A program made the position numbers and the translations under genes. Shown one piece after another: positions 23,968 through 56,226 of a DNA stretch of 64,000 bases. This DNA comes from Planctomycetota bacterium. Lineage in GTDB: Bacteria; Planctomycetota; UBA8108; SXIK01. Positions within the stretch are counted from its first letter, which is position 1. Every line of letters starts with the position of its first letter. The notes below the pieces were generated by a model. The model did not search any database. It was not told the origin of the DNA and worked only from the letters and a program-made list of their open reading frames with translations. The stretch covers positions 5,952,001 to 6,016,000 of the forward strand of contig CBDCXR010000004.1 in NCBI GenBank assembly GCA_965223845.1. The letters run 5' to 3'.

Positions 23968-24044
23968 GGCGAAGGGACTCCGCGGAAACGACCCTGGTGA
24001 TGAACGAGCGAAACGAGGAATCACGGAACAGAACGAGAGCGCGC

Positions 24045-36469: not shown

Positions 36470-36632
36470 ACGAAGAGCGCGAAGGACCGCGAAGAAAGAC
36501 GAAGGAAGAAGGGGGAGTAAATCAGACGTGTAGAAAAAGCGAGCGCGAAGCTCCCTCGCCCAATTAGCTAACTAAATCTCTATCTATCTCTTTCTCCCCC
36601 TTCGTCTTCCTTCGCGCTCTCCGTGTTCAATC
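36461..36632. repeat. Inverted pair of the dispersed REP-like repeat (copies 5 and 6)
   Basis: gagattcacacgaagagcgcgaaggaccgcgaagaaagacgaagg (36461-36505) and cccttcgtcttccttcgcgctctccgtgttcaatc (~36598-36632), with an AT-rich spacer. Confidence 0.82.
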
Positions 36633-38252
36633 TGCTAGAAGAGGAAGCTCAAGACAAGCCGCCTCCTTGTCCGTCCGAATGAGAAGATACGGCGCCGCAA
36701 GCGCGGGAGGGTTCCACATCTTGTCGTCGAGACCGATCACGCGGATCAACTCGCGGTATTCGTCGGGATTCGGCTCGATGAGCGCGATCTCACCGGTCGT
36801 TTCCACCGTCGCGATGATCAAATCGGAAGTCGCGATGAGCTGGCCGTGCCCGATCCGTCCGGCTTTCCAGCGCCGCTCGCCCGTCGCCGGATCGAGGCAG
36901 ACCATAATCCCGTCGTCGAGACCGTAGACGTAACCGTCGAGCTCGAAGAAGTTCGAGAACTTCGCCTTGAGGCTCTTCGTCTTCCAGATCGCCTTCGACG
37001 TGAGCGAGCCGTCCGCGGCCGCCGCGATTTCGAAGAGCGCGCAGCCGATTCCATAACCGGCCGAGACGAGGACGCGATCGGAACCGATCGGCACGGGCTG
37101 CGCGACTTTCGGCCGAGAACCGGGCCAATCCTCACGCCAGAGCACGCGACCGGTATCCGGTGCGTGGGCGGCCACCGAGCGGCCGTTGAGGACGAGGATC
37201 TGCGGAACGCCCGCGACCGTGTGGAGGCTCGGCGAGCTGTAACCGTAGCTCGCGTCCCCCTCGCTCCAGCGCGGCTCCCCGCTCTCGCGATCGAACGCGA
37301 GGAGCGAGCTACCGCTGCCGGCGACCGTCACGATGCAGAGATCGTCCGTGAGAAGTGGCGAACTGCTGAGACCCCACTCGGGGACCATCGATTCCTTGTC
37401 CGGTGCGATGTCACGCGACCACACGGGTTGTCCGGATTCGAGCTCGAGACAGCTCAGCCGTCCGAGCGAACCGAGTGTGTAGACGCGGTCGCCCGAGATC
37501 GTCGGTGTCGCGCGCGGTCCGATTCCGCCGAGCACGGTCTCGTATCGACCTGCATCGGAGTGTGACCAGAGCGGGTCACCGGTCGTGAGCGCGTAGGCGG
37601 TGACGAGTTCGTTCTCGCCGCGCTGTTCCTGCGTGACCGCGATGTCTCCCGCGACGGCGAACCCGGACCAGCCGGATCCGATCTTGCGGCGCCAGACGAC
37701 GATCGGCGGCTCTTCCCTCCAGTTGCGCGCGATCTCGATCCAGCGGGCCTTCCCGTCCCGGTTGTCGCCGAGAAACTGTCGCCAATCGCTCCGCACGCGA
37801 GGCGGAGGCACCGGGGCCGACGAGGTATCCGGCGGAAGCGGGGTCGCCTCGAGTGCGCGGTCGGGCTTCTTCGCGAACCGCCATCCGATGATCGGGACCA
37901 TGTCCCCGGTCACTTGCTCGATGCGAAAGAGCGTCGCGCTTCCGCCGATGACGATGATTGCGCCGATCGCGATCCCCACGCGCGTTCGCCGCCGAAGCGG
38001 CGAGAGGAGTACGCACCAGATGAGAAACAGCGCTCCTCCCACGAGCGCGGATGCCAACGAAAGGAGCACTTTCATCTGCCGATCGGTGTCCCAGAACAGC
38101 CACGCCCAGGCGAGAAGAAGTGCGAGCGCGAAGAGGAGGGCGAGCGGGATCGCATTGACGAACGCGCGAACGAGAAGCCGGCTCGCGCTCGGCGGGCGCG
38201 GTGAGGCCGAGCCGCTCGACGCGGGCGTTCCTTGCGACGATGGATCGTTCAC
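36627..38252 (-). CDS. PQQ-binding-like beta-propeller protein (BamB-like repeats) with N-terminal TM helices
   Basis: 'DWRQFLGDNRDG', 'GPRATPTI', 'SSSPLL', 'YSSP', 'WNPPALA'. Confidence 0.88.
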   Translation of the reverse strand: MNDPSSQGTPASSGSASPRPPSASRLLVRAFVNAIPLALLFALALLLAWAWLFWDTDRQMKVLLSLASALVGGALFLIWCVLLSPLRRRTRVGIAIGAIIVIGGSATLFRIEQVTGDMVPIIGWRFAKKPDRALEATPLPPDTSSAPVPPPRVRSDWRQFLGDNRDGKARWIEIARNWREEPPIVVWRRKIGSGWSGFAVAGDIAVTQEQRGENELVTAYALTTGDPLWSHSDAGRYETVLGGIGPRATPTISGDRVYTLGSLGRLSCLELESGQPVWSRDIAPDKESMVPEWGLSSSPLLTDDLCIVTVAGSGSSLLAFDRESGEPRWSEGDASYGYSSPSLHTVAGVPQILVLNGRSVAAHAPDTGRVLWREDWPGSRPKVAQPVPIGSDRVLVSAGYGIGCALFEIAAAADGSLTSKAIWKTKSLKAKFSNFFELDGYVYGLDDGIMVCLDPATGERRWKAGRIGHGQLIATSDLIIATVETTGEIALIEPNPDEYRELIRVIGLDDKMWNPPALAAPYLLIRTDKEAACLELPLLAD

Positions 38253-41281: not shown

Positions 41282-42421
41282 TCAACAAGCCAGCCGCCGC
41301 CTGAGGTACCGCCGCGCCGGCAGCTCGAAGAGATGATACGCCATCGCCGCGAACACGATCGCCGCGAGGACGAAGCCCGCCAGAAGGAGCGACGCCGCCT
41401 CCGTCCCGAGCCCCGTTCCGAACGGCTCGTTGTAGATGCGCCGCCAACCCTGCCACGGCACCCAGTAGACGAGCCAGTGCGTCATATAGAGCGCGTAGGA
41501 GATGTCTCCGAGGTAGGTGAGCGGACGGCAATTGAACCAGCGCATGAGGCGTCCGGAGATGCTCGCTCCCGAAAGCACGAGAAGCCCGGCGAACAGCACC
41601 GAGATGGCGTCGTGCGTGTCGTAGTGAAGCGTGACGAGAAAGCCGAGGAATGCGAAGACGAAGCTCGCCGGCGATCCTGCGAGACGCCGTGCCGCCGGAG
41701 TGAGCCAGAGCTCGTAGAGAACGAGTCCGAAGAGGCACTCCGCGACGCAGCGGATTTGACCGGGGATGCCGCCGTGATCTAGTCCCTTGTCGTAGTTCGC
41801 GTAGACGAAGGAGAGCGACCAGGCGACGACGACGATCACGGCCGCGCGCACGAGCCAGCTCGTTCGGTGGACAAACGAAAAGAGCATCGGCACGACGAGA
41901 TACGTGAGCCACTCCGCTCCGATCGACCACGAAGGCTGATTCCAGTACGCCATGTCCTTCAGCGACTGAAGGAGGAAGAGGTACGGGACGAACCATTCGG
42001 CGGGATAGCGTCCGACGAATCCCTCCGTGCGGAGGAGCTGAAGCGCGAAGAACACCCACATCATCAGAAAATGAAGCGGGTAGATGCGCGCGAGTCGGGC
42101 GAGGAGGAATTTGAAGTAGCCGTAGGCGCCGACGCCGCGAGCGAATCGCTCTCGGTAGACGTGAGCGAGGACGAACCCGCTCAAAACGAAAAAGAAATCG
42201 ACCCAGAGCCAACCGCGAAAGAGGAGCTGTGTCCGCTTGTCGATCGCTTCGCCGACCTGTGGGAGCAGAAGGTATCCCAGGTGGTAGACCGTCACGTACA
42301 CCGCGGCGATCCCCCGTAGTGGGGTGAGCGTCGGGATGAACGTCACCCCCGTCGACGTCCCGGGCGGCGGCTTCACGCCGTCGGCGCTCTCCGACAGCGC
42401 TCGCGATGATCCCTCTCCCAT
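41282..42421 (-). CDS. Acyltransferase family 3 (OafA/AT3) membrane acyltransferase
   Basis: 'LTPLRGIAA..V..YH', 'VDFFFVLSGF', 'RLARIYPL', 'WSIGAEW', 'LGDISYALYMTH', 'YHLFELP'. Confidence 0.92.
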   Translation of the reverse strand: MGEGSSRALSESADGVKPPPGTSTGVTFIPTLTPLRGIAAVYVTVYHLGYLLLPQVGEAIDKRTQLLFRGWLWVDFFFVLSGFVLAHVYRERFARGVGAYGYFKFLLARLARIYPLHFLMMWVFFALQLLRTEGFVGRYPAEWFVPYLFLLQSLKDMAYWNQPSWSIGAEWLTYLVVPMLFSFVHRTSWLVRAAVIVVVAWSLSFVYANYDKGLDHGGIPGQIRCVAECLFGLVLYELWLTPAARRLAGSPASFVFAFLGFLVTLHYDTHDAISVLFAGLLVLSGASISGRLMRWFNCRPLTYLGDISYALYMTHWLVYWVPWQGWRRIYNEPFGTGLGTEAASLLLAGFVLAAIVFAAMAYHLFELPARRYLRRRLAC

Positions 42422-42619
42422 GACTCACGCTCCGGATGCCCGCGACTCCGCGGCGGACGAGACGACGACGTCGCCTCGAGCTCTCCCGCCGCTATCCCTC
42501 CACCCGCTTCGCTGTTCTCGCTTCTCTCTCCACTTCGCCCTTCGACGTGGATCTCCTCTTCGACCTCGCAGGAGAGCTCCAGCCGATATGTGACGCGTCC
42601 ACGAACTCGTCGCGCCGAG

Positions 42620-45600
42620 CTAGACCCGAGCCGCACCCGTCGAGGCCCGGGTCGCCTCCGTTTTGCAATCGGCGCAATCACATTCGCCGTTCTTCTTCGA
42701 GCAGGCCGCAGCGATCACTCGCCTGAGCTGACGCGCGAGCGTCTCGACGACCGGCTCGAGCACCGCGCCGTCGTGATCGCCCGGCCGCGCGGGCAGCTCG
42801 TGGACTTCGAGGTCGGCGATGTACTTCTTCCAGCCGTTGTCTTCATGGACGAAACGCTTCTTGCTGTCGATCCTGCGGCCGTCTCCGAGCTCGCCGGCGA
42901 TGTCGAGCGGAGGACGGAAGAGCGCGACGCGCCCGGAATACGGATCGGGCTCGTACTCGGCCATCGCGCGGAAGGTCGCATCGTAGATCGCCTCCGAACG
43001 GTAGGACGCCGGGTCGGAGCTCGGCTTCGGCTCACGCCGGAGGCGCCACTCGACCCAGCGCTTCCCGGTCTCGAAGATGTGCCGAACGCCGCGCGACTTC
43101 ACGCGGTCGCGGTGGAGCTTCAGACGGTCGCCGAGGCGAAGACGCTCCCCGGTTCGGGGGACGAGCGTGTCGAGGAACACGAGGAGCTCGACCGTCTGAC
43201 CTTCTCGCTGAAGCTGCTGCGCCATCTCGTAAGCGATGATTCCACCGGAGCAGAATCCGCCGAGGATGTACGGTCCTTCCGGCTGTACTTCGCGCACCTC
43301 GCGAAGGTAGTCAGCGGCCATCTCTTCGAACGACTCGTGAGGGTTGTCGTCGCCGAGGAGGCCGCGCGCCTGAATCCCGTAGAACGGCCGTCGCTCGCCC
43401 ACCCGGACCGCGAGCTGACGCAAATTGAGGACGTTTCCGTAGGCGCCGGCGACGACGAAGATCGGTGTGCCCGAGCCTTCACGCGGCGTCGACATCGGAA
43501 CGACGTAGCGTCGGCGCGCCGGCTCCGTGGCCTTTCCCCCGCACGCTTCGTCCGCGCTCTTGAGATCGCGTCGCAACCGCGCAGCGAGGCTCTCGATCGT
43601 CGGCGCGTCGAAGAGCGTCGCGAGCGGGTATTCGAGCCCGAACTCGGAATTGATCATCGTCATCAGCCGAACGGCGACGAGAGAGTGACCCCCGACGCTG
43701 AAGAAGTCATCGCGCACGCTGAACGCGCCGGTGCCGATGCACTCCTCCCAGAACTCGCTCAGGCGAACCTCGAGCTCGTCGCGCGGTGCGACCCACCGTG
43801 AGTCTCCGGTCGGTATCTCGGCGTTGAGGTCGTACATCGAGACGGCCATCCCGCTCGCGGCCGAGCGGCGGAAGCTGTGCTGGAGAGTGCGCAGGAGGCT
43901 AGCGGCAAGCTCGTCCGAACACTCGTCCACCGCGGGCGCCTCGATCGCGACCGATTGCGGCCGGGCTGCCGCCCACGCGTCGAGGAACGCGGCCGCCGCC
44001 GCCGAGTCGACCTGCGGTTCGAGCGCGCCGAACGGATCCTCTCGAAGCGACACGACGAAGTCGAGCTCTCCGCTCTCGAAGAGCGACTCGACGACGAGCG
44101 CGCCGTGGATTTGCGCGGTGAACACGGCCTCGACGTCGCGGTCCGTTTTTCCTAGAAGCCTTCCGGGGCGAGTGATCGCGTCGTTGTGGATCACGCCGCG
44201 CACCGCGCGGGACTCCGCGAGAAGTCGCTCGCGGAGAGAGCGCATCTCCGCGACGTCGGAGACCACGCCCGAGATCACCGACACGGTGGATCCGAGCGTC
44301 TCGATGCGCTCGATCGCGGCTTCACGCTCGTCGCTCCACTCATCGCGAGGGGCGACCGGCTCGTGTGAGAGCAAGACCGCGTGCACCGGGGCCGTGCGGG
44401 CGAGCGCTTCGGCGGCGAGGAGACCGGAGGGTGAGAGTCCGTCCGTGATCATGTACGACGCGCCCGCCACGACCGGCACGTCGTCTCGGCGTGCGAGCTC
44501 ATTCGCCGGGAGCGGAACGTAGCGACGGACCCACCGGCGACCGCCACTCAGGGCGACGCTCTCCGCCGTGGGATGGCAGAGCTCGGCGAGGAGCGCGTCG
44601 ACGATGTCTTCGCCCACTTGAGCACCCGAGAGATCGACGCTCGCGAACGCGAAGTTCTCGAGGAGGCGCGGAACGACGCGCGCGACGCCGAGAGCCGTCG
44701 CCTTCTCGGGATGGGTTCGCCGTGCGGACGCCCCTCCGACGTCCGAGTGCATGTCGCTCGAGACGATCAGGGTCTCGAGCGACCGGTCCGGCGAACGCCT
44801 CGCCATCGCCTGCGTGAGCGCGAGGAGGCTGTAAAACCCGTGTTCTTGATTCCGCTGGAAGAAACTCGAGCCCGGCCGGCAGGTCTCCTCGTCCGTCACG
44901 AGCCAGCAGTGAACGACGCGTGACGCTTCGAATCCACGGCGAGCGAGCGAGGCGAGGAGCCGATCGTACTCCTCCCGACCGAGTGAGGGATTGAGCCAGT
45001 ACTCTTCCGGCGAGAGCTCGACGAACGAATCTCCGGCGGAAACCGTCACCACACGGGCTCCTTCCGTACGGAGCGCCGCTGCGAGCTCCGCTCCGATCCC
45101 GGCTTCGTCGGCGAAGACGAGCCAGTCGCCGAGGAGCGAGATCGATCGATCGACGGCGCGTAGTTCCGACTCGACCCACTCGACGCGCTGAACCCACTCG
45201 CGCGGATCCGAACGTCGTGCGGGCGTCGTGGCCGGACGCGCCCTACTCTGCGTCGGCGCGGGCAGTCGCGCGCGGTCGATCTTCCCGTTCGGCGTGAGTG
45301 GGAGTTCCTCGAGCGCGACGAAGTGCTGCGGCACCATGTAGTACGGCAAACGACTGCGAAGAAGCTCTCGGAGCTCGTCGCGCGGCGGCTCGGCATCGTC
45401 CGCCGGAACGTAGTACGCGACGAGACGCTGGTCGCCCTCGCGATCTTCGCGGACCGAGGCCACCGCCGAATGAACTCTCGGGTGCTCGCGGAGAAGTCCT
45501 TCGATCTCGCCGAGCTCGACCCGGAAGCCGCGGATCTTCACCTGGTCGTCGGCGCGGTGGAGCCACTGAAGGAGTCCGTCGCCGTGGAAGCGTGCGATGT

Positions 45601-48325
45601 CGCCCGTTCGGTACATGCGCGCGTTCGGCTCGTTCGCGAACGGGTCCTCGACGAAGCGCGCCGCCGTGAGGTCGGGTTGGCCGTGGTATCCCCGCGCGAC
45701 ACCCGCGCCGCCGATGTAGAGCTCGCCCGGAACGCCGGCCGGAACCGGCTCTCCCGCCTCGTCGAGGATGTAGAGACGGGTGTTCGCGATCGGTCGACCG
45801 GCGACGACGAGAGCGTCACCCGAAGAGAGGCGCTGACACGTCGACCAGACGGTTGTCTCGGTCGGCCCGTAGAGGTTCCACACTTCGTCGGAATGCGCAG
45901 TGAGCTCGTGCGCGAGATCGACAGCCAAGGCCTCCCCTCCGGAGAGGACGCGAAGCGGCGTCGCGGGCCAACCGGCGTCGACGATCATGCGCCAGGTCAC
46001 CGGTGTGGCCTGAAGCGTCGTGATCTCGTGCTGCTCGATCAAGTGGAGGATGGTTCGTCCGTCCATCGCCGAAGCACTGTCGGCGACGACGGAGCGCGCA
46101 CCGACCCAGACGGGAAGGAAGAGCTCGAGCGCCGCGATATCGAACGAAATCGTCGTGAGCGCGAGGAGGCGATCCTCCGGCCCCAAGCCGGGCTCCTCGG
46201 CCATGCTGTCGAGAAAGTTCGCGAGGTTCGCGTGCGTCACCTCGACGCCCTTTGGTTTCCCGGTCGAGCCGGAGGTGTAGATGATGTAGGCGACATCGTC
46301 GCCGTCGATCCGGAGATCGCCCGGGAGGGGAGGATCGTTCGCACCCTCGCTCGGGGCTCGGTCGATGCACAGGGTCTTCGCGGCCGTCGCGGGGAGGGCG
46401 CTCTCGAGCGTCGTGCTCGTGACGACGAGCGTGGCACCCGAGCTCTCGAGGATGGCGCGCTGGCGTTCGGCCGGGTACTGCGGGTCGATCGGCACGTAGG
46501 CCGCGCCCGCCGTGAGGACTCCTAGGAGCGCGGCGGGGAGGTCGATTCCGCGCTCGAGGCAAACTGCGACGATGCCGTGCGGCGCAACTCCACTCGCTGC
46601 GATGCGGCGTGCGATGACGTCGACGCGCTCGCCGAACTCGCGGTAGGTGAACGCTCCGTCGTGCGCCTCGAAGGCGACGGCGTCCGGGGTGGCGGCGATG
46701 CGCTCGCGGATGCGGGCGGGAACGGACACCTCCGGAATCTCGCGCGCGGTTTCATTCCAGGCGACGACGACTTCGTGTCGTTCCGCGTCGGAGAGTCGCA
46801 GCGCATCGCACAGCGGTCGGTCGGGCGCTTCGACGAGCGCCTCGAGAACGTCGCGGAACTGCGCGAGGAGCCGCCGCGCGGTTACGGGACTGAAGAGATC
46901 CGTGCTGTAGTCGAGCGCGAGGGTCCAGTCGTCGACCTGCGCCTTGATGACGAAGTGGAGATCTGTCTGGGAGGACCCCATCGGCACGTTGAACTGAGTG
47001 AGCTCGACCGGCCCGAACGAGCGGGGCCGCGCCGACGCGTCCTGGTAGAGGAACATCACCTGAAAGAGCGGGTTCCGGCTCCGGTCGCGCGCGACGCTCA
47101 GCTCCTCGACGAGCTGCTCGAAGGGAAGCGACTGGTGTGTAAACGCGTCGAGCGAGTTTTCGCGGACGACTCGGACGAGCTCGCGAAAGCTCATGTCTGC
47201 GCGCAGCTCGCTCCGGGTGACGAGCATGTTGACGAAGTATCCGATGAGCGGCTCGATCTCCGGTCGGGTGGTGTTCTCGATCGGACAGCCGACCGCCAGG
47301 TCGGTCTGACCCGTCAGCCGGTGCATGAACGCCTTCACCGCGGCGAGGACGGTCATGTAGAGAGTCGCCTTCTCCGAGCGGCCGAGCTCGATCAACTTCG
47401 CGACGAGGGCATCCGGAATCGGAAGCAGCTCGGAGGTTCCGCGGTAGCTGATCGCCGCGGGACGCGGCAAGTCGGTCGGCAGCTCGAGAAACGGGACGCC
47501 GTCGCCGAGCTTCTCGCGCCAGAAATCGATATCGGCGCGCAGTGCATCGTCGCGAAGCAGGTCGCGCTCCCACGCAGCGAAGTCGGCGTACTGAACCTCG
47601 AGTGCCGGGAGCTCGGCGTCTCGATCGGCGATGTCGGCTTCGTAGAGTTGCGCGAGCTCCGCGAGCGCGATGTCGAACGACCACGCGTCCCAGACGATGT
47701 GATGCGGGAGGATGAGGATCGCGTGCTCTTCGTCGTCGAGTTGATAGAGAACGAAGCGCACGAGGCGATCGCTCGCGAGATCGAACGGTTGATGCACCTC
47801 GGCTTGGATTCGCTCGGCGAGCTCGCGCTCGCGCTCTTCCCGCGTACCCGTGCGCAAATCGTAGAGCGGTACGTCGACGTCGACCTCGTCGTGGATGACG
47901 AGCACCGGCTCACCGTTCTGCGTGAGGAAGTTCGTTCGCAGCGTCTCGTGGCGAGCGAAGATCGCAGCGATCGCGCGGCGGAGCGCCTCGACATCGAGCG
48001 GGCCGCGGAGGTGCCAGCCCCCGGGGATGTTGTGCAGCGGGCAACCCGGTTGCAGCTGCTCGAGGAACCACGCTCGTTGCTGCGAGAACGAAAGCGGAAG
48101 CGGACCGCTCCGTTCGCGGCGCGCGATCGGCGGAAGCGATTGCGATGCTTCCTCGGTCTCGGTCCGCTTGAAGAACGCGAGGAACTCGTCGCGACGCTCA
48201 CGAATCCTCGCGATGAGCTGCGGGTCCGCGGAGCCCCGTGGCGCATTGCAGATCAGTCGACCGGATTCGACGCGGAGCTCGATCCCGGCCTCTCTGAGCT
48301 CAGAGAGAAACTCGTAGATTCTCAA
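42620..48325 (-). CDS. NRPS: TubC-type N-terminal docking domain, C, A (Gly-like), degenerate KR, T, thioesterase
   Basis: C 'HHIVWDAWS'; A 'YTSGSTGKPKG', 'YGPTETTVWS', 'NGKIDR'; KR-like region; T 'GGHSL'; TE 'GGFCSGG' and 'PGDHD'; TTG start overlaps the upstream TGA. Confidence 0.92.
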   Translation of the reverse strand: MRIYEFLSELREAGIELRVESGRLICNAPRGSADPQLIARIRERRDEFLAFFKRTETEEASQSLPPIARRERSGPLPLSFSQQRAWFLEQLQPGCPLHNIPGGWHLRGPLDVEALRRAIAAIFARHETLRTNFLTQNGEPVLVIHDEVDVDVPLYDLRTGTREERERELAERIQAEVHQPFDLASDRLVRFVLYQLDDEEHAILILPHHIVWDAWSFDIALAELAQLYEADIADRDAELPALEVQYADFAAWERDLLRDDALRADIDFWREKLGDGVPFLELPTDLPRPAAISYRGTSELLPIPDALVAKLIELGRSEKATLYMTVLAAVKAFMHRLTGQTDLAVGCPIENTTRPEIEPLIGYFVNMLVTRSELRADMSFRELVRVVRENSLDAFTHQSLPFEQLVEELSVARDRSRNPLFQVMFLYQDASARPRSFGPVELTQFNVPMGSSQTDLHFVIKAQVDDWTLALDYSTDLFSPVTARRLLAQFRDVLEALVEAPDRPLCDALRLSDAERHEVVVAWNETAREIPEVSVPARIRERIAATPDAVAFEAHDGAFTYREFGERVDVIARRIAASGVAPHGIVAVCLERGIDLPAALLGVLTAGAAYVPIDPQYPAERQRAILESSGATLVVTSTTLESALPATAAKTLCIDRAPSEGANDPPLPGDLRIDGDDVAYIIYTSGSTGKPKGVEVTHANLANFLDSMAEEPGLGPEDRLLALTTISFDIAALELFLPVWVGARSVVADSASAMDGRTILHLIEQHEITTLQATPVTWRMIVDAGWPATPLRVLSGGEALAVDLAHELTAHSDEVWNLYGPTETTVWSTCQRLSSGDALVVAGRPIANTRLYILDEAGEPVPAGVPGELYIGGAGVARGYHGQPDLTAARFVEDPFANEPNARMYRTGDIARFHGDGLLQWLHRADDQVKIRGFRVELGEIEGLLREHPRVHSAVASVREDREGDQRLVAYYVPADDAEPPRDELRELLRSRLPYYMVPQHFVALEELPLTPNGKIDRARLPAPTQSRARPATTPARRSDPREWVQRVEWVESELRAVDRSISLLGDWLVFADEAGIGAELAAALRTEGARVVTVSAGDSFVELSPEEYWLNPSLGREEYDRLLASLARRGFEASRVVHCWLVTDEETCRPGSSFFQRNQEHGFYSLLALTQAMARRSPDRSLETLIVSSDMHSDVGGASARRTHPEKATALGVARVVPRLLENFAFASVDLSGAQVGEDIVDALLAELCHPTAESVALSGGRRWVRRYVPLPANELARRDDVPVVAGASYMITDGLSPSGLLAAEALARTAPVHAVLLSHEPVAPRDEWSDEREAAIERIETLGSTVSVISGVVSDVAEMRSLRERLLAESRAVRGVIHNDAITRPGRLLGKTDRDVEAVFTAQIHGALVVESLFESGELDFVVSLREDPFGALEPQVDSAAAAAFLDAWAAARPQSVAIEAPAVDECSDELAASLLRTLQHSFRRSAASGMAVSMYDLNAEIPTGDSRWVAPRDELEVRLSEFWEECIGTGAFSVRDDFFSVGGHSLVAVRLMTMINSEFGLEYPLATLFDAPTIESLAARLRRDLKSADEACGGKATEPARRRYVVPMSTPREGSGTPIFVVAGAYGNVLNLRQLAVRVGERRPFYGIQARGLLGDDNPHESFEEMAADYLREVREVQPEGPYILGGFCSGGIIAYEMAQQLQREGQTVELLVFLDTLVPRTGERLRLGDRLKLHRDRVKSRGVRHIFETGKRWVEWRLRREPKPSSDPASYRSEAIYDATFRAMAEYEPDPYSGRVALFRPPLDIAGELGDGRRIDSKKRFVHEDNGWKKYIADLEVHELPARPGDHDGAVLEPVVETLARQLRRVIAAACSKKNGECDCADCKTEATRASTGAARV

Positions 48326-51300
48326 ATCTCGATGTCCTCACGCCCGTCGTCCGCGGTTCCACCCGCGGACGCGCCCACGTACCGCTGCGCCTCGATGTAT
48401 TCGGCCAGCCCACGAATCGTCGGATCGACGAAAAACCCTCGCAGTTGCAGATCGACGTGAAACTCTTCGCGCGCCTTGGCGAGCATTCGCGCCGCGACGA
48501 GTGAGTGTCCGCCGAGGTCGAAGAAGTCCGCCCGCACGCTCACGCGCTCGAGGCGCAGTGTTTCGCTCCAGAGCTGCGCGAGATACGACTCGACCTCGCC
48601 CGCCGCCGGCGCGTACGTCTCGACGATGATCGAGGCGCCGTCCGGCGGCGGCAGCGCGCGGCGGTCGACCTTCCCGTTCGGCGTGCGCGGCACTTCGTCG
48701 AGCTCGACAAAGTGCTGCGGCACCATGTACTCGGGGAGACGCGCGCGAACGAAGGCTCGCAATTCTCCGAGATCGAGCGAATCGTGCTCCCAGCGAACGT
48801 AGGCGACCAGGCGGTGGTCGCCGGACTCGCCCTCCCACACCGAGGCGACCGCCTCGGCGACGCCTCCGAACGCGGCGAGCGCGCTCTCGACTTCACCGAG
48901 CTCGATGCGGAAGCCTCGGACCTTGACCTGGTCGTCGACGCGGCGGAGGCACTCGATCGCTCCGCTCGACGTGACGCGCGCGAGGTCGCCGGTCCGGTAG
49001 AGTCGATCTCCGTCGCGGAAGGGATGCTCGACGAACTTCTCCGAGGTGAGCTCGTCGCGACCGAGGTAACCGCGTGCGAGGCCGGTGCCGCCGATGTAGA
49101 GCTCGCCGACCGCGCCGACGGGAAGGAGCTCCCTCGCATCGTCGAGGACGAAGAGCTCGGTGTTCGCGATCGGTCGACCGACGAGAACTCGGTCGTCGGA
49201 AGGATGGACGCGATGACAGGAAGACCAGACCGTGGTCTCCGTCGGCCCATACATATTCCACACCTCCTCCGAACGCTCGCCAAACTGCCGCGCGAGGTCC
49301 TCGGGGAGACGTTCACCGCCGCAGAGAACCTTGAGGGGGACTTCTCGTGTCCACCCCGCTTCGATGAGAAGTCGCCAGGTGACTGGCGTCGCTTGGAGGA
49401 CCGTCGCGCCCGTCGTGCGAATGAGCCGCAGCAGCTCGGCGCCGTCGGCGGCCGTTTCGCTCGGCACTAGAATACACTTCGCTCCAACGAAGAGCGGAAG
49501 GAAAAGCTCGAGCGCGGCGATGTCGAACGAGATCGTCGTGACCGCCGCGAGTCCATCGATCGGACGAAGTCCGGGCTCGCGCGCCATGCTGGCGAGGAAG
49601 TTGACGAGGCTCCGGTGCGTGATCTGAACGCCCTTCGGCTTTCCCGTCGAACCGGACGTATAAATGACGTACGCAAGATGTTCGGGGCCGGTCGTCGGTT
49701 CGAGGTCCGAGGCGTCCGCGTCTCCGATCACGTTCGCTTCGAGATCGAGACAGACGACGCGCGCACTGCCCTTCGGCAGATCCGCCGCGATGCTCGAATG
49801 CGAGAGCACGACGCTCGCCCGCGAATCTTCGAGCATGAACTCGATGCGTGCGGCGGGAAAATCCGGGTCGAGGGGAACGTAAGCCCCGCCGGCCTTGTGA
49901 ATCGCGAGGAGCGCGATGACGAGATCCGGTCCGCGCTCGAGGTGAACGCCGATCAGATCTTCCGCACCGACTCCGATCGAGCGCAGGTAGCGCGCGAGTC
50001 GGTTCGCCTCGGCGTTCAGCTCGCGGTACGTCCAGCTCGACTCTCCGAAGACGACAGCGGTCGCGTTCGGCGTCTTCGTCGCCTGCTCGGCGATCACGCG
50101 CTGGAGGCAGCCGTCGGGGAATTCGGCGGTCGTCCGATTGAGCTCCGTCTCGAGGTGGTCCCGCTGATCGGCGGTGAGGACGGGAAGGCGCCGCACTTCG
50201 GTCTCGGGCGTGCGCACCGCGCTTTCGAGCAAGCACTCGAAGTGGCTGAGCCAGCGGCGGATCGTCGCTTCGTCGTAGAGATCGGTATTGAAATCGAGGT
50301 CGACGGTGAGGCTTCCCTGACCCTCGTTCAGGTTGACGAACATGTCGAAGTGCGCCGCGCCCTTCGGGTTCTCATGAATCGACGCGCTGAGTCCACTGAA
50401 CCCGCTTCCCGGCACGTCGCGGTCGACGTTGAAGATCACCTCGATGAGCGGCAGTCGACTCGGATCGCGTTTGACGGCGATCTCTTCGAGCAGGCGACCG
50501 AACGCGACGTCCTGGTTCTCGTACATGTCGAGCACCTTCGACTGCACTTCGTCGAGGAGGGTCGCAAACGTCGCCCCGCGGGGGAACTTCATGCGAACCG
50601 GCACCAGATTGACGCAGTGCCCGATCATGTTCTGCTCGCCGGCGAGCGCTTGGCCGGCCGTCGGGATGCCGACGACGAGATCGTCCTGGCCGGTGAGCCG
50701 GTGGAGAAGCGCACCGTACGTGGCGAGGAGTGCCGCGAAGAGTGTCACGCCGCGCTCTCCGGCGAAGGCCTTGAACGACTCGTACACGTCTTGATCGAAC
50801 TGATGGTGGATCGATGAACCGCCGTTTGTGCGCACACGAGGCCGGATTCGATCGGTCGGGAGGTCGAGGGGCGGTGGAACGCTCGCGAACTCGTTTTTCC
50901 AGAAGCGAATGATCTCGTCGCCCGCCTCGCTCGCGCGCCGTTCCTCTTCCTCGATCGCATAGCGGAGAAACGAGCCTGCGTCGGGAAGGAGCGCCGGACG
51001 ATTCTCGACCGAGCTCGAGTAGAGGACGCTCACCTCGTCCACGAACACGCCTGCTGACCAGCCGTCGAAGACGATATGGTGGGACGTGCCGATGAGGTGG
51101 TGCGTCGTCGCGTCGAGCTTGACGACGTGGAGCCGGAGGAGCGGCCCCGCCTCGAGATCGAACGGCGTTCGCCCCTCGTGGTCGTAGATCCGGCGGAGCT
51201 CTTCTTTCTTCTTCGAGCGTGAACAGCCGGAGAGATCGGTCCACTCCCACTCGGGTGTCTCGGAAAGAACGAGCCGCTGGGACGGACCATCGCTGCTGAA

Positions 51301-54300
51301 GCGCAGCGAAAACCCTTCGTGCCGCTCGACCGTCTGCCGGATCGCGTCGCGAAGGGCGTCGACGTCGAGCTTGCCCCGCAGCTTGAGCGTAAACGACTCG
51401 TTGTACGCGCAGGAGGCGTCGTCCCCCATTTGCGATGCGAACCAGATCTCGCGCTGCCCGTCCGTGAGAGGAAACGATCCGACGGGAACGTCGACGACGA
51501 GCTCGCTCTCCGGAAGAAATCCACCGGCTTGCATCTCGAGCACGCTCTCCTCGATCGCCGCTTGCACGCGCGCAATCTCCTCGCTCGTGTGCTGCGTCGA
51601 GAAGAAGCAGTTCTGCCCGATCTCGCGGATGTAGATCCCGCGCTCGATCAGGTGGTAGACGAGGATCGGGCCGATCGGGAGGTCGCTCGGAAGGTCGAAG
51701 CGGAACCACGAGCTGAACTGACGGATGCGAATTGGTACGCGTCGCGACTCGAAGAAGAGATTGAGCTCGCGCGCGAAGCGTGTCGTGCGCGCATTCACGC
51801 CCTCCTGGAGCTTCGGACCTTCGGTTTCGAGGTGCTCGAGCACCGCGCCCGCGGCCGCGAGGGCGAGCGGATGGCGGACGAACGTCCCGGCGAAGAACGT
51901 CATGTCGGCCTCCGGCGCGGAGTCGTCGCCGTAGTTCCACATGCCGCCGTCGAGCGCATCCATGTATTTCGCGCTCCCGGCGACGACTCCGATCGGGAGC
52001 CCGCCGCCGATCACCTTCCCGTAGGTTGCGAGGTCGCCGCGGATGCCGAAGAGAGCCTGCGCGCCGCCGGGGTGCACGCGGAATCCGGTGATGACCTCGT
52101 CGAAGATCATCGCCGTTCCACTCTCTTCGGTGAGCTGACGCACCGCGCGGAGGAACTCAACCGGACGGTTCTCCGGGTGGCGACTCTGAATCGGCTCCAC
52201 CAGCACCGCCGCCAGCTCGCCCGCGTGCGCTCGGAGCACCTCGAGACTTTCCGGCGCCCCGTAGTCGAGGATCATCGCCGCGTTCACCGCTTGCTGCACG
52301 ATTCCCGGTGCCGCGGGCAGGGTCTGAAGGTTCCCACGCACCACCTGTGAGCGACCGAGCACTTCGTCGAAGACGCCGTGGTAGTCACCGGCGAAGTACG
52401 CGATGCGATCGCGTCCCGTCACCGTTCGCGCCATGCGAAGAGCCGCGGTGACGGCTTCCGAGCCGGTATTGCAGAACGACACTCGCTCCATCCCGGTGAG
52501 CCGCGCGAGGCGCTCGGCGACCGGCCCGGCGAGCTCGTGCTGCGGTCCGATCTCCATCCCTCGCTCGAGCTGTGCGCGAATCGCCGCCTCGACGTAATCG
52601 GGCGAGTGCCCGAGGTAGTTGACGCCGAATCCCATGGTGATGTCGATGTACTCGTTGCCATCGACGTCCCAGAGGCGCGAACCCTTCGAGCGCTCGGTGA
52701 CGATCTGGTAGACGAGCTCCTTCCACGCGCCGCGGAAGCCCGCGACCGATCGCGGATCGGACTGAACGGGCCGATAGCGCGCGGCGGCGGCTTTCGATCC
52801 GGCGGTCTTTTCGCTGACGCGATGGACGAGCGCGTCGAGATGCTGCTGTTGGCGCGAAGTGAGTCCGCCGTCGGCACCGCGCGCGACCGGCGCGTAGGGG
52901 CCGAAGCGTCCCTTCGTCGACTCGGTGTCGCCTCGCGCGCCGAGCTTCGCCTGCGCGACGGGGCGCCGGAGATCCTCGGGCTCGAGATCGCCCGTCGAGC
53001 GAGCGCTTTGCGCGCGCAGACCGGCAAGTTCCGACTGGATCGTCTGGAGCTGTGCCGCGATGCGATCGACGGGATCGCCCCCCTCGCTCGGCGCGATCGG
53101 GGGAGCGGCGGCCGGAGGCGCGCTCGACGCCGCCGGTGCGGGCGTCGTGGCAACCGGGGCCGGCGCCGCGAACGCGTCTGCGGGGAGGCGTTCGTCGTAG
53201 TATTCGGCGAGCGCTTCGATCGACGTCACGTCTTCGAGAAGCTGGCGGAACTTGATTCGCTCGCCGAGCTGCTGACCGAGCTCGGCGCTCGCCTGCGTGA
53301 GGAAGAGCGAATCGAGTCCCATTTCGAGGAACGTCGTCTCGCGATCGTCCTCGCCGATCTCGATGCCGGAGAGGTCGTAGAAGATCTCGCGGATGCGACT
53401 CGCGATCCGGTCCTTTCGGCTGCCGGGATCCTCCGCTTCGGTCGGAGCGGCGGCGGGAGGGACCGCGGCGTCCGCGGTGAGCTCAGAGCTCGAAACCGCG
53501 GTGACGCCCGAGGGGGTAGCGCGCGTCGGGTCCCCGAGCGGGGGCGGGTCGATCCAGTGCCGTTCGCGGGCGAACGCGTAGCCGGGAAGCTCGACGCGGC
53601 GGCGCCCTTCTTCGGCGTAGAACTTCTCCCAATCGACTGCGACGCCGTTCGTCCACAAGCGACCGACCGCGTCGAGGATCGATGCGAGTGCGTCGCCGGC
53701 ATCCTTCGGATGCGCACACGACGAAACGACGCTCGGACGTCTGCCGTCGAACGAGTGCTGGAGCGCGGAGTTGGACAGCGTGCGCGAAGGTCCGACCTCG
53801 AGAAACACGCGACCCTCCTCGCGTGCGACCTCGGACAGCGCGGCGCTGAAGCGCACCGGACGGCGGAGTTGCTGTGCCCAGTAGCTCGGATCGGTCGCCT
53901 CGGAGTCGGTGAGCCACCTTCCGGTGAGCGTCGAGAGAATGGGGCGCGAGGGCGCACGCCGCTCGACGCCGGCGACGATGGCGGTGAACGGCGCGACGAC
54001 CGGCTCCATCATCTCCGAGTGGAACGCGTGCGACGTGTGGAGCGGGATCGTCTCGAGCTTGTCGGCGCTCAAGCGTTTCTCGAACGCCTGAATCGCCTCC
54101 GGCGAGCCGCTCACGATCGAGACCTGCGGCGCGTTCGCGGCGGCGAGCGCAACGCCGTCACCGAGATAAGGCGCAACATCCTCTTCGCTGAGCCGAACGG
54201 CGCGCATGTGACCCGCGGGCATCGACTGCATGAGGCGCGCGCGCTCGGCGAGAACGCGGAGGGCGTCGTCGAACGTGAACACTCCGGCGAGGCACGCCGC

Positions 54301-56226
54301 GGTGTACTCGCCGACACTGTGACCGATCATCACCTCCGGCGTGAATCCCCAGCTTTCCCACAGCTCTGCGAGTGCGTATTCGATGACGAAGAGGGCCGGC
54401 TGCGTGACGCTCGTCTGCGTGAGAGTCTTCGCGGCGCTCTTTCGCTCGTCTTCGCTTCCCGTCGGGTAGAGCACGCTCCGGAGATCGAGATCGAGGATCG
54501 GCCGGAGTCCCTCACAGCCGCGATCGACTGCGTCGCGGAAGACGCGCTCCGACTCGTAGAGCGCGCGACACATATCCACGTGCTGCGCGCCTTGTCCCGG
54601 GAAGAGGTAGACGAGCGAACGATCGCCGTCGGGCGCGGTCTGCTTGACGCGGCGACTCTTCTCCCGCAGCGCCGCGTGCGCGTCGGCGGCGTCCGCCGCG
54701 ACTACGAATAGACGCTCGGAGAATTCTTCGCGGCCGACGGCGAGCGTGTACGCCGCGTCGGGAAGTTCGGGGGCGCCGTCGCGACCGAACGCCTCGGCGA
54801 GCTCTGCGGCACTTCGTTCGAGCGCCTCCGTCGTTTTCGCCGAGAGCGGAACGAGCTCGAGCCGCCGGGCCGAGAGCGCCGGACGCGGTGCCGGCGCTTC
54901 CTCGAGTACGACGTGGACATTGGTTCCCCCGACGCCGAACGAGCTCACTCCCGCGCGGCGAGGAACTCCCTCGGGCGGAGTCCAAGCGCGGTGCTTCTCG
55001 ACCGGATAGAACGGGCTCGACGCGAAGTCGATCTCGGGGTTCGGCGCGGTGTAGTGGAGCGTTGCGGGGATCTCTCCGTGCTGGAGTGCGAGCACGGTCT
55101 TGATGAGGCCCGCGACGCCGGCGGCCGCATCGAGGTGGCCGATGTTGCTCTTCACCGAGCCGAGCCCGCAGTACTGCTCTCGATCCGTTTTCGCACGGAA
55201 CGCCTTCGTGAGGCCCGCGACTTCGATGGGATCGCCGAGCGGAGTCGCCGTACCGTGGCCTTCGACGTAGGTGATCGTCTCGGGGTCGACGCCCGCGACG
55301 CTCTGCGCGAGGGCGATCACCTCCGCCTGACCATCGACCGACGGGGCCGGGTAGCTCACCTTGAGCGCGCCGTCGTTGTTCGTGCCCCAGCCGCGGATCA
55401 CCGCGAGGATGCGATCGCCGCTCGCGATCGCGTCTTCTAGCCGGCGGAGGACGACGACTCCGACGCCGCTCGAAAAGACGGTCCCGCACGCGTTCTCATC
55501 GAAGGGGCGACAGTGCCCGTCGGGCGAGAGCATGCCGCCTTCCTGAGAGATGTATCCCTTCTCCTGCGGAAAGGAGATGCAAACGCCTCCGGCGAGGCAG
55601 AGATCGCACTCGAAGTTGACGAGGCTGCTGCAGCCCATCGCGACCGCGACGAGCGACGTCGAGCACGCGGTCTGGACGTTGACCGACGGACCCTTCAGGT
55701 TGAACTTGAAGCTCGTCCGTGTCGGCAGGTAGTCCTTGTCGTTGCTGATGATGTTTTGGAACGCGTCGACCGACCGAAACCGCACCAGTCGTTCGATGTA
55801 CTCGCGATCCCGGCACAGGTTGTAGAGGAGGTACGAGTTGATGTAGCTCCCGGCGTACACGCCGATCGAGCCCCGGAACTTGCTCGGCGCGTGACCGGCG
55901 TTCTCGAGCGCGTGCCACGCGGTCTCGAGCCACACGCGCTGCTGGGGGTCGAGCACCGCGGCTTCCCGCGGGCTGAAGCCGAAGAATCCGGCGTCGAACT
56001 TGTCGACGTCCGCGAGGATCCCGCGCGCCCGTACGTAGCTCGGATCGTTCTGGATGCGTTCGAAGTCGAGCTCCACACCGCGGAGCTGGTCGTCGGAGAG
56101 ACGGTGGAGGCTCTCCCTGCCGGCAGCGAGGTTCTGCCAGAACTCGGCGATATTCCGAGCGTCTGGGAACCGCCCCGCCATGCCGACGATGGCGACCCCT
56201 TCGAGGTCTTGCGCGCCTGTCTGCAT
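48322..56226 (-). CDS. Hybrid PKS-NRPS: KS-AT-ACP-class III aminotransferase-C-A (Gly-like)-PCP
   Basis: KS 'TACSTS', 'EGHGT', 'NIGH'; AT 'GHSVG', 'HAFH' (malonyl-type); ACP 'GLDSL'; aminotransferase 'FDEVITGFR', 'TYGKVIGGG'; C 'HHIVFDGWS'; A core motifs; PCP 'GGHSL'. Confidence 0.95.
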   Translation of the reverse strand: MQTGAQDLEGVAIVGMAGRFPDARNIAEFWQNLAAGRESLHRLSDDQLRGVELDFERIQNDPSYVRARGILADVDKFDAGFFGFSPREAAVLDPQQRVWLETAWHALENAGHAPSKFRGSIGVYAGSYINSYLLYNLCRDREYIERLVRFRSVDAFQNIISNDKDYLPTRTSFKFNLKGPSVNVQTACSTSLVAVAMGCSSLVNFECDLCLAGGVCISFPQEKGYISQEGGMLSPDGHCRPFDENACGTVFSSGVGVVVLRRLEDAIASGDRILAVIRGWGTNNDGALKVSYPAPSVDGQAEVIALAQSVAGVDPETITYVEGHGTATPLGDPIEVAGLTKAFRAKTDREQYCGLGSVKSNIGHLDAAAGVAGLIKTVLALQHGEIPATLHYTAPNPEIDFASSPFYPVEKHRAWTPPEGVPRRAGVSSFGVGGTNVHVVLEEAPAPRPALSARRLELVPLSAKTTEALERSAAELAEAFGRDGAPELPDAAYTLAVGREEFSERLFVVAADAADAHAALREKSRRVKQTAPDGDRSLVYLFPGQGAQHVDMCRALYESERVFRDAVDRGCEGLRPILDLDLRSVLYPTGSEDERKSAAKTLTQTSVTQPALFVIEYALAELWESWGFTPEVMIGHSVGEYTAACLAGVFTFDDALRVLAERARLMQSMPAGHMRAVRLSEEDVAPYLGDGVALAAANAPQVSIVSGSPEAIQAFEKRLSADKLETIPLHTSHAFHSEMMEPVVAPFTAIVAGVERRAPSRPILSTLTGRWLTDSEATDPSYWAQQLRRPVRFSAALSEVAREEGRVFLEVGPSRTLSNSALQHSFDGRRPSVVSSCAHPKDAGDALASILDAVGRLWTNGVAVDWEKFYAEEGRRRVELPGYAFARERHWIDPPPLGDPTRATPSGVTAVSSSELTADAAVPPAAAPTEAEDPGSRKDRIASRIREIFYDLSGIEIGEDDRETTFLEMGLDSLFLTQASAELGQQLGERIKFRQLLEDVTSIEALAEYYDERLPADAFAAPAPVATTPAPAASSAPPAAAPPIAPSEGGDPVDRIAAQLQTIQSELAGLRAQSARSTGDLEPEDLRRPVAQAKLGARGDTESTKGRFGPYAPVARGADGGLTSRQQQHLDALVHRVSEKTAGSKAAAARYRPVQSDPRSVAGFRGAWKELVYQIVTERSKGSRLWDVDGNEYIDITMGFGVNYLGHSPDYVEAAIRAQLERGMEIGPQHELAGPVAERLARLTGMERVSFCNTGSEAVTAALRMARTVTGRDRIAYFAGDYHGVFDEVLGRSQVVRGNLQTLPAAPGIVQQAVNAAMILDYGAPESLEVLRAHAGELAAVLVEPIQSRHPENRPVEFLRAVRQLTEESGTAMIFDEVITGFRVHPGGAQALFGIRGDLATYGKVIGGGLPIGVVAGSAKYMDALDGGMWNYGDDSAPEADMTFFAGTFVRHPLALAAAGAVLEHLETEGPKLQEGVNARTTRFARELNLFFESRRVPIRIRQFSSWFRFDLPSDLPIGPILVYHLIERGIYIREIGQNCFFSTQHTSEEIARVQAAIEESVLEMQAGGFLPESELVVDVPVGSFPLTDGQREIWFASQMGDDASCAYNESFTLKLRGKLDVDALRDAIRQTVERHEGFSLRFSSDGPSQRLVLSETPEWEWTDLSGCSRSKKKEELRRIYDHEGRTPFDLEAGPLLRLHVVKLDATTHHLIGTSHHIVFDGWSAGVFVDEVSVLYSSSVENRPALLPDAGSFLRYAIEEEERRASEAGDEIIRFWKNEFASVPPPLDLPTDRIRPRVRTNGGSSIHHQFDQDVYESFKAFAGERGVTLFAALLATYGALLHRLTGQDDLVVGIPTAGQALAGEQNMIGHCVNLVPVRMKFPRGATFATLLDEVQSKVLDMYENQDVAFGRLLEEIAVKRDPSRLPLIEVIFNVDRDVPGSGFSGLSASIHENPKGAAHFDMFVNLNEGQGSLTVDLDFNTDLYDEATIRRWLSHFECLLESAVRTPETEVRRLPVLTADQRDHLETELNRTTAEFPDGCLQRVIAEQATKTPNATAVVFGESSWTYRELNAEANRLARYLRSIGVGAEDLIGVHLERGPDLVIALLAIHKAGGAYVPLDPDFPAARIEFMLEDSRASVVLSHSSIAADLPKGSARVVCLDLEANVIGDADASDLEPTTGPEHLAYVIYTSGSTGKPKGVQITHRSLVNFLASMAREPGLRPIDGLAAVTTISFDIAALELFLPLFVGAKCILVPSETAADGAELLRLIRTTGATVLQATPVTWRLLIEAGWTREVPLKVLCGGERLPEDLARQFGERSEEVWNMYGPTETTVWSSCHRVHPSDDRVLVGRPIANTELFVLDDARELLPVGAVGELYIGGTGLARGYLGRDELTSEKFVEHPFRDGDRLYRTGDLARVTSSGAIECLRRVDDQVKVRGFRIELGEVESALAAFGGVAEAVASVWEGESGDHRLVAYVRWEHDSLDLGELRAFVRARLPEYMVPQHFVELDEVPRTPNGKVDRRALPPPDGASIIVETYAPAAGEVESYLAQLWSETLRLERVSVRADFFDLGGHSLVAARMLAKAREEFHVDLQLRGFFVDPTIRGLAEYIEAQRYVGASAGGTADDGREDIEI

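Follow-up and report, generated by a model that had tools for sequence, protein, structure and literature searches.

What does a compact hybrid assembly line make when it is followed directly by a membrane acyltransferase gene, and where does its product go? The question is raised by a three-gene unit on the minus strand of a 64,000-nucleotide stretch of a Planctomycetota genome (assembly GCA_965223845.1, contig CBDCXR010000004.1, positions 5,952,001 to 6,016,000), which we call the window and whose own numbering is used for all features of the unit. The unit combines a polyketide synthase (PKS) front, two nonribosomal peptide synthetase (NRPS) modules and an acyltransferase-3 (AT3) gene, and the initial annotation proposed that the line builds a beta-aminoacyl-Gly-Gly thioester that AT3 moves onto the cell envelope. 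The chemical logic of that interpretation held and the envelope idea gained partial support at the level of the family, but off-loading by AT3 was not supported. We found that the three genes are best explained as a horizontally acquired, intact thiotemplate unit and, from sequence comparison, as a chimera within a family of compact lines that is very widespread but has no chemical characterisation to date. The tie of this family to polysaccharide loci is, in our ranking, a more interesting result than the unit itself.

Genes and domains were called by Pfam and NCBIfam profile searches of the translated open reading frames (ORFs) of the window. The three co-oriented genes and their domain order were as first described, the gene ends matching the ORFs exactly and the domains being assigned by Pfam. 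Gene 1 (P0001, 48322..56226, minus strand like everything in the unit) encodes a PKS-NRPS hybrid of 2634 aa that starts with a ketosynthase (KS; residues 9-392, 55051..56202, Pfam E 1.5e-67) and an acyltransferase (AT; residues 539-819, 53770..54612, E 6e-52) with GHSVGE and HAFH motifs, which we take to indicate malonyl-CoA specificity. The acyl carrier protein (ACP; approximately residues 945-1015, 53182..53394) is the second of two PP-binding Pfam stretches and carries the phosphopantetheine Ser973 in GLDSL. It is followed by an in-line class III aminotransferase (AMT; residues 1173-1540, 51607..52710, Aminotran_3 E 4.5e-53), the first condensation (C) domain (residues 1585-2025, 50152..51474, E 6e-89, motif HHIVFDG), the first adenylation (A) domain (residues 2046-2519, 48670..50091, AMP-binding E 2e-92) and a thiolation (T) domain (Pfam, residues 2548-2611, 48394..48585).

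Gene 2 (P0002, 42620..48325, 1901 aa) has a TTG start and overlaps the stop of gene 1 by 4 bases. It opens with a TubC_N docking domain (PF18563, residues 3-53, 48167..48319, E 9e-12), followed by a second C domain (Pfam, residues 76-518, 46772..48100, motif HHIVWDA) and a second A domain (AMP-binding, residues 540-1015, 45281..46708). Then come a structural ketoreductase subdomain (psiKR) and a ketoreductase (KR), together residues 1070-1457 (43955..45118; Beta-ketacyl_N 1070-1191 and KR 1289-1457, E 1.2e-17), a second carrier domain (PP-binding, residues 1533-1584, 43574..43729) that is PKS-ACP-like by ancestry, and a thioesterase (TE; residues 1621-1880, 42686..43465, with the Pfam Thioesterase match at 1621-1728). 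A purine-rich spacer of 198 bases (42422..42619) separates gene 2 from gene 3 (P0003, 41282..42421, 379 aa), in which Pfam finds Acyl_transf_3 (PF01757) alone (E 3e-25, 89.4 bits against a cut-off of 31). The Pfam E-values across the unit span approximately 1e-12 to 1e-93, so that chance does not explain the domain calls, and NCBIfam gave nothing more specific for the three genes. None of seven terminator-like sites falls in the spacer, seven sites against 6.7 expected being no signal either way, and promoter and terminator scans gave nothing above shuffled sequences.

The active sites of the line are largely in order. The KS residues C188, H324 and H364, the ACP residues G970, D972, S973 and L974, and the pyridoxal phosphate-binding K1404 of the aminotransferase with many residues near it are invariant in our alignment A1, and 21 homologues of gene 1 share its architecture at 45-52% identity. 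Both carrier serines and the C-domain histidines are present in the translations and alignments. The succession of KS-AT-ACP, class III aminotransferase and C domain within one protein is that of an in-line beta-aminotransferase hybrid. The pockets of the A domains were re-derived from the translations and by alignment as DILQLGMVWK in gene 1 and DILQLGLVWK in gene 2, confirming the earlier readings by eye, and by the published specificity-code tables we take both to mean glycine. The logic of malonyl extension, beta-transamination and two Gly-type modules holds.

The rear of gene 2 tells a different story from its front. Sought in a collection of 5.8 billion proteins, the C-A-KR-T-TE build of gene 2 was found in no other protein among the matches listed, and the best 120 matches to its rear are PKS proteins or fragments of roughly 1,150-2,700 aa, mostly of approximately 2,150 aa. 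Residues 1040-1456 align with the psiKR-KR of a KS-AT-KR-DH-ACP-TE PKS family (DH, dehydratase) at 34-37% identity, and residues 1505-1875 (T-TE) align with the ACP-TE of the same family at 45-48%, whereas identity to the T-TE of the aminotransferase-hybrid family is lower, at 31-36%. C-A stands where KS-AT would be and the DH of the parent family is missing, so that gene 2 has no KS, AT or DH of such a single-module PKS. On these alignments, gene 2 is a chimera of an NRPS front and a PKS-derived rear. The genome itself encodes a PKS of this family (2172 aa), but a recent intragenomic origin of the rear was ruled out, as its ACP-TE is just 46% identical to that of gene 2.

The KR that came with this rear is, by comparison with its relatives, catalytically dead. 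Among 72 columns conserved in at least 95% of the 120 PKS relatives, gene 2 retains 48, and cofactor and catalytic positions are among the losses: D1295 and S1298 stand at cofactor-loop glycines, and H1321, V1354, Q1405, E1429/P1431, S1441 and A1445 are further substitutions, the replaced positions including conserved Arg, Asp, Lys, Ser, Tyr and Asn. At the nucleophile position of the TE, 116 of the 120 rows read GGFSGGG and gene 2 reads GGFCSGG, placing Cys1692 for Ser; Asp1719 and His1851 are kept, which leaves an intact Cys-Asp-His set in the alignment. Such Cys-type TEs are found in the window line and in some of its relatives.

Several observations concern the PKS family from which the rear descends. 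The genome's own member lies outside the window (G000 C4:1328000-1375000, L099-L101; G000 is the genome studied here) and has the unusual order KS-AT-psiKR-KR-DH-ACP-TE. It sits between polysaccharide deacetylase and SIS/Bac_transf genes in an exosortase (EpsH) polysaccharide locus that also holds UDP-glucose dehydrogenase, glycosyltransferases (GTs) of the GT2 and GT1 families, WecG, sugar kinases and nucleotidyltransferases. By the names of the matched proteins, this family of approximately 2150-aa PKSs is common in Planctomycetota, roseobacters and Myxococcota; within the phylum, 6 of 151 sampled genomes have a match at E 1e-80, G000 included. In one of them (G005), genes for a 470-aa protein and an AT3 come next after the orthologue and are co-oriented with it, and GT1 and Bac_transf genes lie in the vicinity.

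Where does the unit begin and end? Synteny with the nearest genomes was of no use for this, since the relatives are too diverged and rearranged, and presence or absence was taken instead. AT3 was absent from all 60 related genomes at E 1e-10, and so was the aminotransferase-C hybrid, for which three matches covered the C domain only, at 31-35% identity; no other aminotransferase hybrid was found in this genome. Downstream of AT3, on the same strand, a non-coding gap of 422 bases is followed by an AsmA/DUF748-like gene (38292-40859), a PQQ_2 beta-propeller gene (36627-38252), a DrrA/NodI-like ABC ATPase gene (35579-36469) and an ABC-2 permease gene. Upstream of gene 1, approximately 850 bases hold no recognisable gene, and a metalloenzyme/phosphodiesterase-like gene follows. 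Homologues of the AsmA-like gene occur in 4 of 5 genomes, including 3 of 3 of the same family, those of the PQQ propeller in 5 of 5 and those of the metalloenzyme-like gene in 2 of 5, always at other places. We conclude that the island consists of three genes, because AT3 and the hybrid are absent from relatives in which the flanking genes have homologues; the AsmA-like and PQQ genes are left out on this ground. As members of the unit, the AsmA-like, PQQ-propeller and ABC-2 genes were further rejected for having no homologues near 80 related lines, generic ABC ATPases excepted. The third-position GC of the unit (0.82-0.83) is like that of neighbouring genes, so base composition gives no island mark. 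The claim that the unit lacks an exporter is right for the three genes themselves, but the same strand carries the ABC ATPase and ABC-2 permease genes 5 kb farther downstream. The genome has one phosphopantetheinyl transferase (PPTase) gene of PF01648, away from the unit.

How unusual is such a line? A scan of contigs from one genome per species found relatives in at least 574 loci (574 of 594 candidate stretches) in many phyla, and the best 80 of these loci were studied. In all 80, tblastn matches span residues approximately 1-2630 of gene 1 at 41-54% identity, indicating homology over the full-length core, and the aminotransferase-C region has thousands of relatives in the protein collection, many of them KS-AT-ACP-AMT-C-A-T. 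Domain maps of the 80 loci give a canonical layout in which an A-T loader, separate or fused, precedes KS-AT-ACP-AMT-C-A-T and then C-A-T-TE, C-T-TE or C-C-T-TE. Most of them have a DILQLG..WK-type pocket in the A domain behind the aminotransferase, and two consecutive Gly-type modules also occur in L085 and L078. The related loci belong to Verrucomicrobiota, Acidobacteriota, Planctomycetota, Pseudomonadota, Cyanobacteriota, Chloroflexota, Kiritimatiellota and Entotheonella, and the open full-text literature, subscription journals being outside its coverage, yielded no named product for the family. The window line differs from this family in having no loader, a dead KR between A and T, a Cys-TE and a rear of PKS ancestry, and none of the 80 related loci gave a KR match. 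A quick IQ-TREE of the aminotransferase domain (76 rows) places it beside L034, a metagenome-assembled genome (MAG) of the Chloroflexota, with support of 96 and 61% identity, and the next neighbour is the Entotheonella line L080.

Some variants within the family deserve mention in their own right. Many lines (L033, L049, L051, L027, L053 and others) end in C-T-TE or C-C-T-TE, and because their last module has no A domain, its carrier must rely on a different A domain for loading or stay empty. In a MAG labelled Janthinobacterium lividum, the whole line is a single protein of 2970 aa, A(Pro-like pocket)-T-KS-AT-ACP-AMT-C-T-TE (L043:9881-18799), which has a near relative in an Armatimonadales MAG (L088).

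The surroundings of these lines hint at the cell surface. When the 873 flanking ORFs of the 80 loci were clustered and the representatives named by Pfam, the recurrent families were Wzz/GNVR (28 of the 80 loci), a protein with weak likeness to Cupin_8 (26 loci, 45 copies), Bac_transf (23), GT1 (20), PPTase (19), Poly_export (15), a PAF-AH/PETase-like hydrolase (14), GT2 (12), hexapeptide transferases (9), two families of flippases (9 and 7), UDP-glucose dehydrogenase (6) and a CmlA-type hydroxylase (CmlA_N; 6). At many loci, the line and the polysaccharide genes form one string on the same strand. We counted six classes of exopolysaccharide (EPS) genes (Wzz, Bac_transf, Wza, Wzx, GT1 and GT2) and called a locus well flanked when at least 6 kb was available on both sides. 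At least two classes were present at 19 of 35 well-flanked loci, against 24 of 1568 30-kb windows of this genome (1.5%), a comparison in which the classes were defined from the loci and then counted in them, the loci are related to one another and a single genome served as control. At least one class was present at 26 of the 35, and over all 80 loci the counts were 33 (at least two) and 47 (at least one). Envelope decoration, as first suggested for this unit, therefore finds partial support at the family level, in these 19 of 35 loci among polysaccharide genes, and none in the 64-kb window, where the location among Wzx/Wzy-type genes that is frequent, if not universal, in the family was not found. 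The EPS-type regions of this genome, at 1.32-1.37, 3.92, 6.29-6.32 and 7.20-7.23 Mb, are far from the unit.

A protein of 333 aa without a Pfam match also stands beside the lines in 6 loci. This protein, the Cupin_8-like protein or the PAF-AH/PETase-like hydrolase (L077:19829-20815, L077:20844-22304 and L049:22465-23463 are among the examples of the three) could supply the hydroxylase or transferase that the family lacks.

Does AT3 belong to the line? The protein looks functional from its conservation: of 51 columns conserved in at least 85% of 119 homologues, it keeps 48, including R36, H47, D75, S81, R109, R112, E170, S308 and H315, and R36, D75, S81, R109, R112, E170 and S308 are invariant in alignment A2. 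It has the multiple hydrophobic segments of a PF01757 membrane acyltransferase and, with PF01757 as its sole Pfam match over 379 aa, no fused SGNH domain, which sets it apart from the OafA/OatA subtype. It is the genome's only PF01757 match above the cut-off (7.9 Mb searched), and its best relative in the protein collection is 39% identical. With a hidden Markov model (HMM) built from 120 homologues and a reach of 10 kb, AT3 matches were found at 8 of the 80 related loci and in each case shared the orientation of the line. They come immediately behind C-T-TE in L036 and L039, as in the window, and among GT genes or before a flippase in the others. A metagenome scan with the AT3 alignment, from which 80 of 579 relatives were kept, gave its two lowest E-values for L125 and L130 (84% identity between the two), in which AT3 lies between the KS-AT-ACP-AMT and the C-A-T of a family line. 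In L135, a C-A(Gly-like)-T-TE, an 859-aa protein, Bac_transf and AT3 share one strand. Of these 80 AT3-subfamily loci, 77 showed no NRPS within reach. AT3 nevertheless seems to go with the line, being the genome's only PF01757 gene, co-absent with the megasynthase in 60 relatives and recurrent, through its counterparts, at 8 of 80 loci.

The expectation that AT3 would be conserved beside related megasynthases was nevertheless not borne out. No AT3 was found within 10 kb of 72 of the 80 lines, the nearest relative, L034, among them, and the line-adjacent AT3s are 22-31% identical to that of the window and fall into at least three unrelated clades. Orthology with them, or with the AT3 beside the PKS of G005, was ruled out at this identity. 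A FastTree of AT3s has several clades and lacks resolution for the placement of the window protein.

The starter of the line is a further question, as we found no module ahead of the KS and no loader upstream of it or elsewhere in the window. The loaders of the relatives are NRPS-type A-T with amino-acid pockets, 37-45% identical to the A domains of the window, so that the family starts from an amino acid and not from a fatty acid. A lipopeptide reading, in which a fatty acyl-AMP ligase (FAAL) and ACP would load a precursor of a beta-amino fatty acid, was rejected on the same grounds. An orphan protein of 926 aa encoded 1.24 Mb away (G000 C4:4749858-4751708), next to a carbamoyltransferase gene, is built from a C-domain tail followed by A and T domains. 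The A domain has a Thr-like pocket and shares 53-55% identity with the first-module A domains of L067, L061, L047 and L085. The protein is a candidate trans loader.

Taken together, these results lead us to a tentative reading, which we hold at somewhat less than even strength: that the unit is an acquired chimeric line whose short peptide goes to a glycan route in trans, with AT3 as an accessory enzyme. The KS would receive an aminoacyl or acyl starter in trans, possibly from the orphan truncated-C-A(Thr-like)-T protein, and the starter would be extended with malonate, its beta-keto group transaminated and two glycines added. The Cys-TE would then either hydrolyse off a short amine-rich peptide or pass it to an acceptor amine or hydroxyl, and the peptide would be handed to a lipid-linked sugar or polysaccharide export route, as may be the case in much of the family. 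Here, the route would be provided in trans by one of the distant EPS loci of the genome, as has been proposed for carenaemin in Collimonas. AT3 would act at the membrane as an acyl-CoA-dependent O-acyltransferase on the product or the sugar conjugate and would not unload the line, since release is provided for by a domain of the line itself and related lines have interchangeable AT3s beside them.

A number of observations weigh against this reading. The window holds no glycosyltransferase, Wzx, Wzz or Wza gene, and 9 of the 35 well-flanked relatives have no EPS class, quite apart from the way in which the enrichment was counted. The closest relative, L034, has neither EPS genes nor AT3, and the lines of L125 and L130, with AT3 inside them, have no EPS genes in reach. 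Both the starter and the loader in trans are guesswork, the reading of the pockets as glycine comes from published code tables, and a carrier separated from its A domain by approximately 500 residues of dead KR might load poorly. Finally, the DrrA-like ABC exporter 5 kb downstream fits a freely secreted metabolite just as well.

Such a metabolite is the alternative that survives best, even if we consider it rather unlikely. Here the TE would hydrolyse or cyclise a small beta-amino peptide, AT3 would O-acylate it for tailoring or self-protection and the DrrA-like ABC-2 system would export it, without any glycan. AT3 enzymes O-acylate products in some antibiotic pathways, and the lack of EPS genes in the window, the stand-alone clusters of L034, L125 and L130 and the co-oriented exporter are all consistent with this proposal. 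Hydroxylase genes (Cupin_8-like, CmlA_N) recur in the family and adjoin AT3 in L130, L058 and L066, so that hydroxylation followed by O-acylation of the peptide would fit. The unit itself has no hydroxylase, however, and Gly-Gly offers no hydroxyl unless the starter supplies one; two genes with homologues elsewhere in relatives separate the ABC genes from the island, and the strong enrichment of the family in Wzx/Wzy loci would need another explanation.

In the model proposed first, the carrier-bound beta-aminoacyl-Gly-Gly thioester is the substrate of AT3, which carries its peptidyl group through the membrane to an envelope polymer or lipid, in the manner of Dlt. Its appeal lies in the arrangement, with AT3 directly after the TE gene on the same strand, as after the C-T-TE of L036 and L039, and between the halves of the lines in L125 and L130, and in the genome's only AT3 being missing from relatives together with the line. 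The pantetheine arms of carriers and of CoA are alike, as is well established, and D-alanylation of teichoic acids is a precedent for passing a carrier thioester to a membrane acyltransferase, though of the MBOAT type. The line, however, ends in its own TE with Cys, Asp and His intact, and unloading therefore needs no AT3. The donors of known AT3s are, to our knowledge, acyl-CoAs; AT3 here has no SGNH partner domain, and the divergence of the line-adjacent AT3s and their absence from most related lines also count against the model. We regard this model as improbable. Equally poor are the prospects of a decaying remnant, left over from a bigger cluster after loss of the loader, the glycan genes and KR/DH function, that makes nothing, since a missing loader in cis where most relatives have one, a dead KR with the DH deleted and a family-type first module (truncated C-A-T) stranded 1.24 Mb away are set against open frames of 2634 and 1901 codons without stops, intact motifs at every catalytic site checked in KS, AT, ACP, aminotransferase, C, A, T and TE, neighbour-like third-position GC, the well-conserved AT3 and a KS-first hybrid without a loader that is functional in Collimonas (PMC8313283).

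The glycan route in trans, which we still prefer for this unit, can be extended to a broader and more doubtful proposal, which we would put forward as an unlikely but attractive idea: that the family is machinery, spread over more than 10 phyla, for placing short amine-rich peptides covalently on lipid-linked sugars or exported polysaccharides, with the TE or AT3 as transferase, and that in the genome studied here a distant EPS locus and a loader act in trans. The unit itself is a singleton natural chimera, in which an NRPS front meets a dead-KR/ACP/TE rear from an EPS-locus PKS, and an example of module recombination across PKS and NRPS families. Compact lines of this kind occur by the hundreds in Acidobacteriota, Verrucomicrobiota, Planctomycetota, Bradyrhizobium and others, and more than half of the well-flanked ones lie inside polysaccharide export loci. 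If their peptides do end on surface glycans, bacteria abundant in soil and water would have a new way of decorating these glycans, and genome-mining tools would read such clusters as envelope chemistry and not as antibiotics. The function of the family is testable, because culturable members exist, among them Acidicapsa dinghuensis 4GSKX (L077), Haloferula sp. BvORR071 (L025) and Bradyrhizobium sp. STM 3843 (L083), in all of which the line is set within an EPS locus.

Other parts of the window and of the genome yielded observations that are separate from the unit. The PQQ_2 propeller family to which the window gene at 36627-38252 belongs is greatly expanded in the relatives G001-G007, with 10 to 27 matches per genome. 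At 19045-29141 (minus strand) lie two adjacent giant paralogues of 1707 and 1698 aa with Lamin-tail, CHB_HEX_C/Fn3_assoc and CotH kinase-like domains, and beside them a 1527-aa FG-GAP protein and an EF-hand/BD-FAE esterase. An ORF of 1236 aa at 30064-33774 (plus strand) has no Pfam or NCBIfam match and falls within the only low-GC stretch of the window (0.58-0.61); an rRNA operon was considered for the low-GC stretch at 29-34 kb and rejected, as Rfam gave no match there. Elsewhere in the genome (G000 C4:5169078-5174590, L098:6079-11600), a 1577-aa protein combines a formyltransferase with an A domain, into which a luciferase-like monooxygenase is inserted, and with a T domain; its gene is followed by the only PF01648 PPTase gene of the genome and preceded, on the other strand, by a PQQ_2 propeller gene.

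How does the unit compare with known systems? With the iturin and mycosubtilin synthetases (MycA/ItuA) and the microcystin synthetase McyE it shares the order of KS-AT-ACP, in-line class III aminotransferase and C domain, and the same conversion of a beta-keto to a beta-amino group on the carrier would be expected. Those lines load a fatty or polyketide acyl chain, whereas the window has neither the FAAL and ACP of iturin-type loading ahead of its KS nor any other loader, its relatives have amino-acid A-T loaders, and the line is just two NRPS modules long. The A-KR-T modules of cereulide, valinomycin and cryptophycin (CrpD) that reduce alpha-keto acids share with gene 2 the insert of KR fold between A and T and the order C-A-KR-T-TE. 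Unlike them, gene 2 has a KR that, as measured against the 120 PKS relatives, has lost its cofactor loop as well as Lys, Ser, Tyr and Asn of the catalytic site, belongs to a family in which none of 80 related loci shows a KR at this place, and keeps Asp235 in an A pocket that reads as one for an amino acid (Gly). With Dlt D-alanylation the unit shares the concept of an A enzyme that loads a carrier and a membrane acyltransferase that passes the aminoacyl group to an envelope polymer; Dlt has an MBOAT enzyme, a free small carrier and no TE, in contrast to the AT3, in-line carriers and TE found here. The AT3s of OafA/OatA, ExoZ/ExoH, GumF/G and the macrolide O-acyltransferases have PF01757 and conserved Arg, His, Asp, Ser and Glu in common with the window protein, and at related loci AT3 genes are found among GT genes, but the window protein lacks the SGNH domain of OafA/OatA and has no database relative closer than the 39% given above.

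Two further systems are closest to the polysaccharide side of the argument. WcbR and RkpA are type I PKSs of capsule clusters (PMC3908369), and by description they resemble the parent of the gene 2 rear, a single-module PKS among polysaccharide genes; gene 2 differs from them in having no KS, AT or DH and a dead KR. The carenaemin (cpl) cluster of Collimonas arenae Cal35, as described in the accessible passages of PMC8313283, has five core genes, Gln-, Ser- and Leu-like A pockets, a second PKS module, a pyruvyl transferase and, in those passages, no reported AT3, all of which distinguish it from the window line. By description the two are alike in being hybrid lines that open with a protein of KS/AT and aminotransferase for which no loader is known, and the cpl cluster, too, was horizontally acquired (PMC8313283). 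Carenaemin production further requires a Wzy-type sugar-repeat locus at another site of the chromosome, and in the proposal of its authors the core peptide becomes attached to a lipid-linked sugar unit before flipping (PMC8313283).

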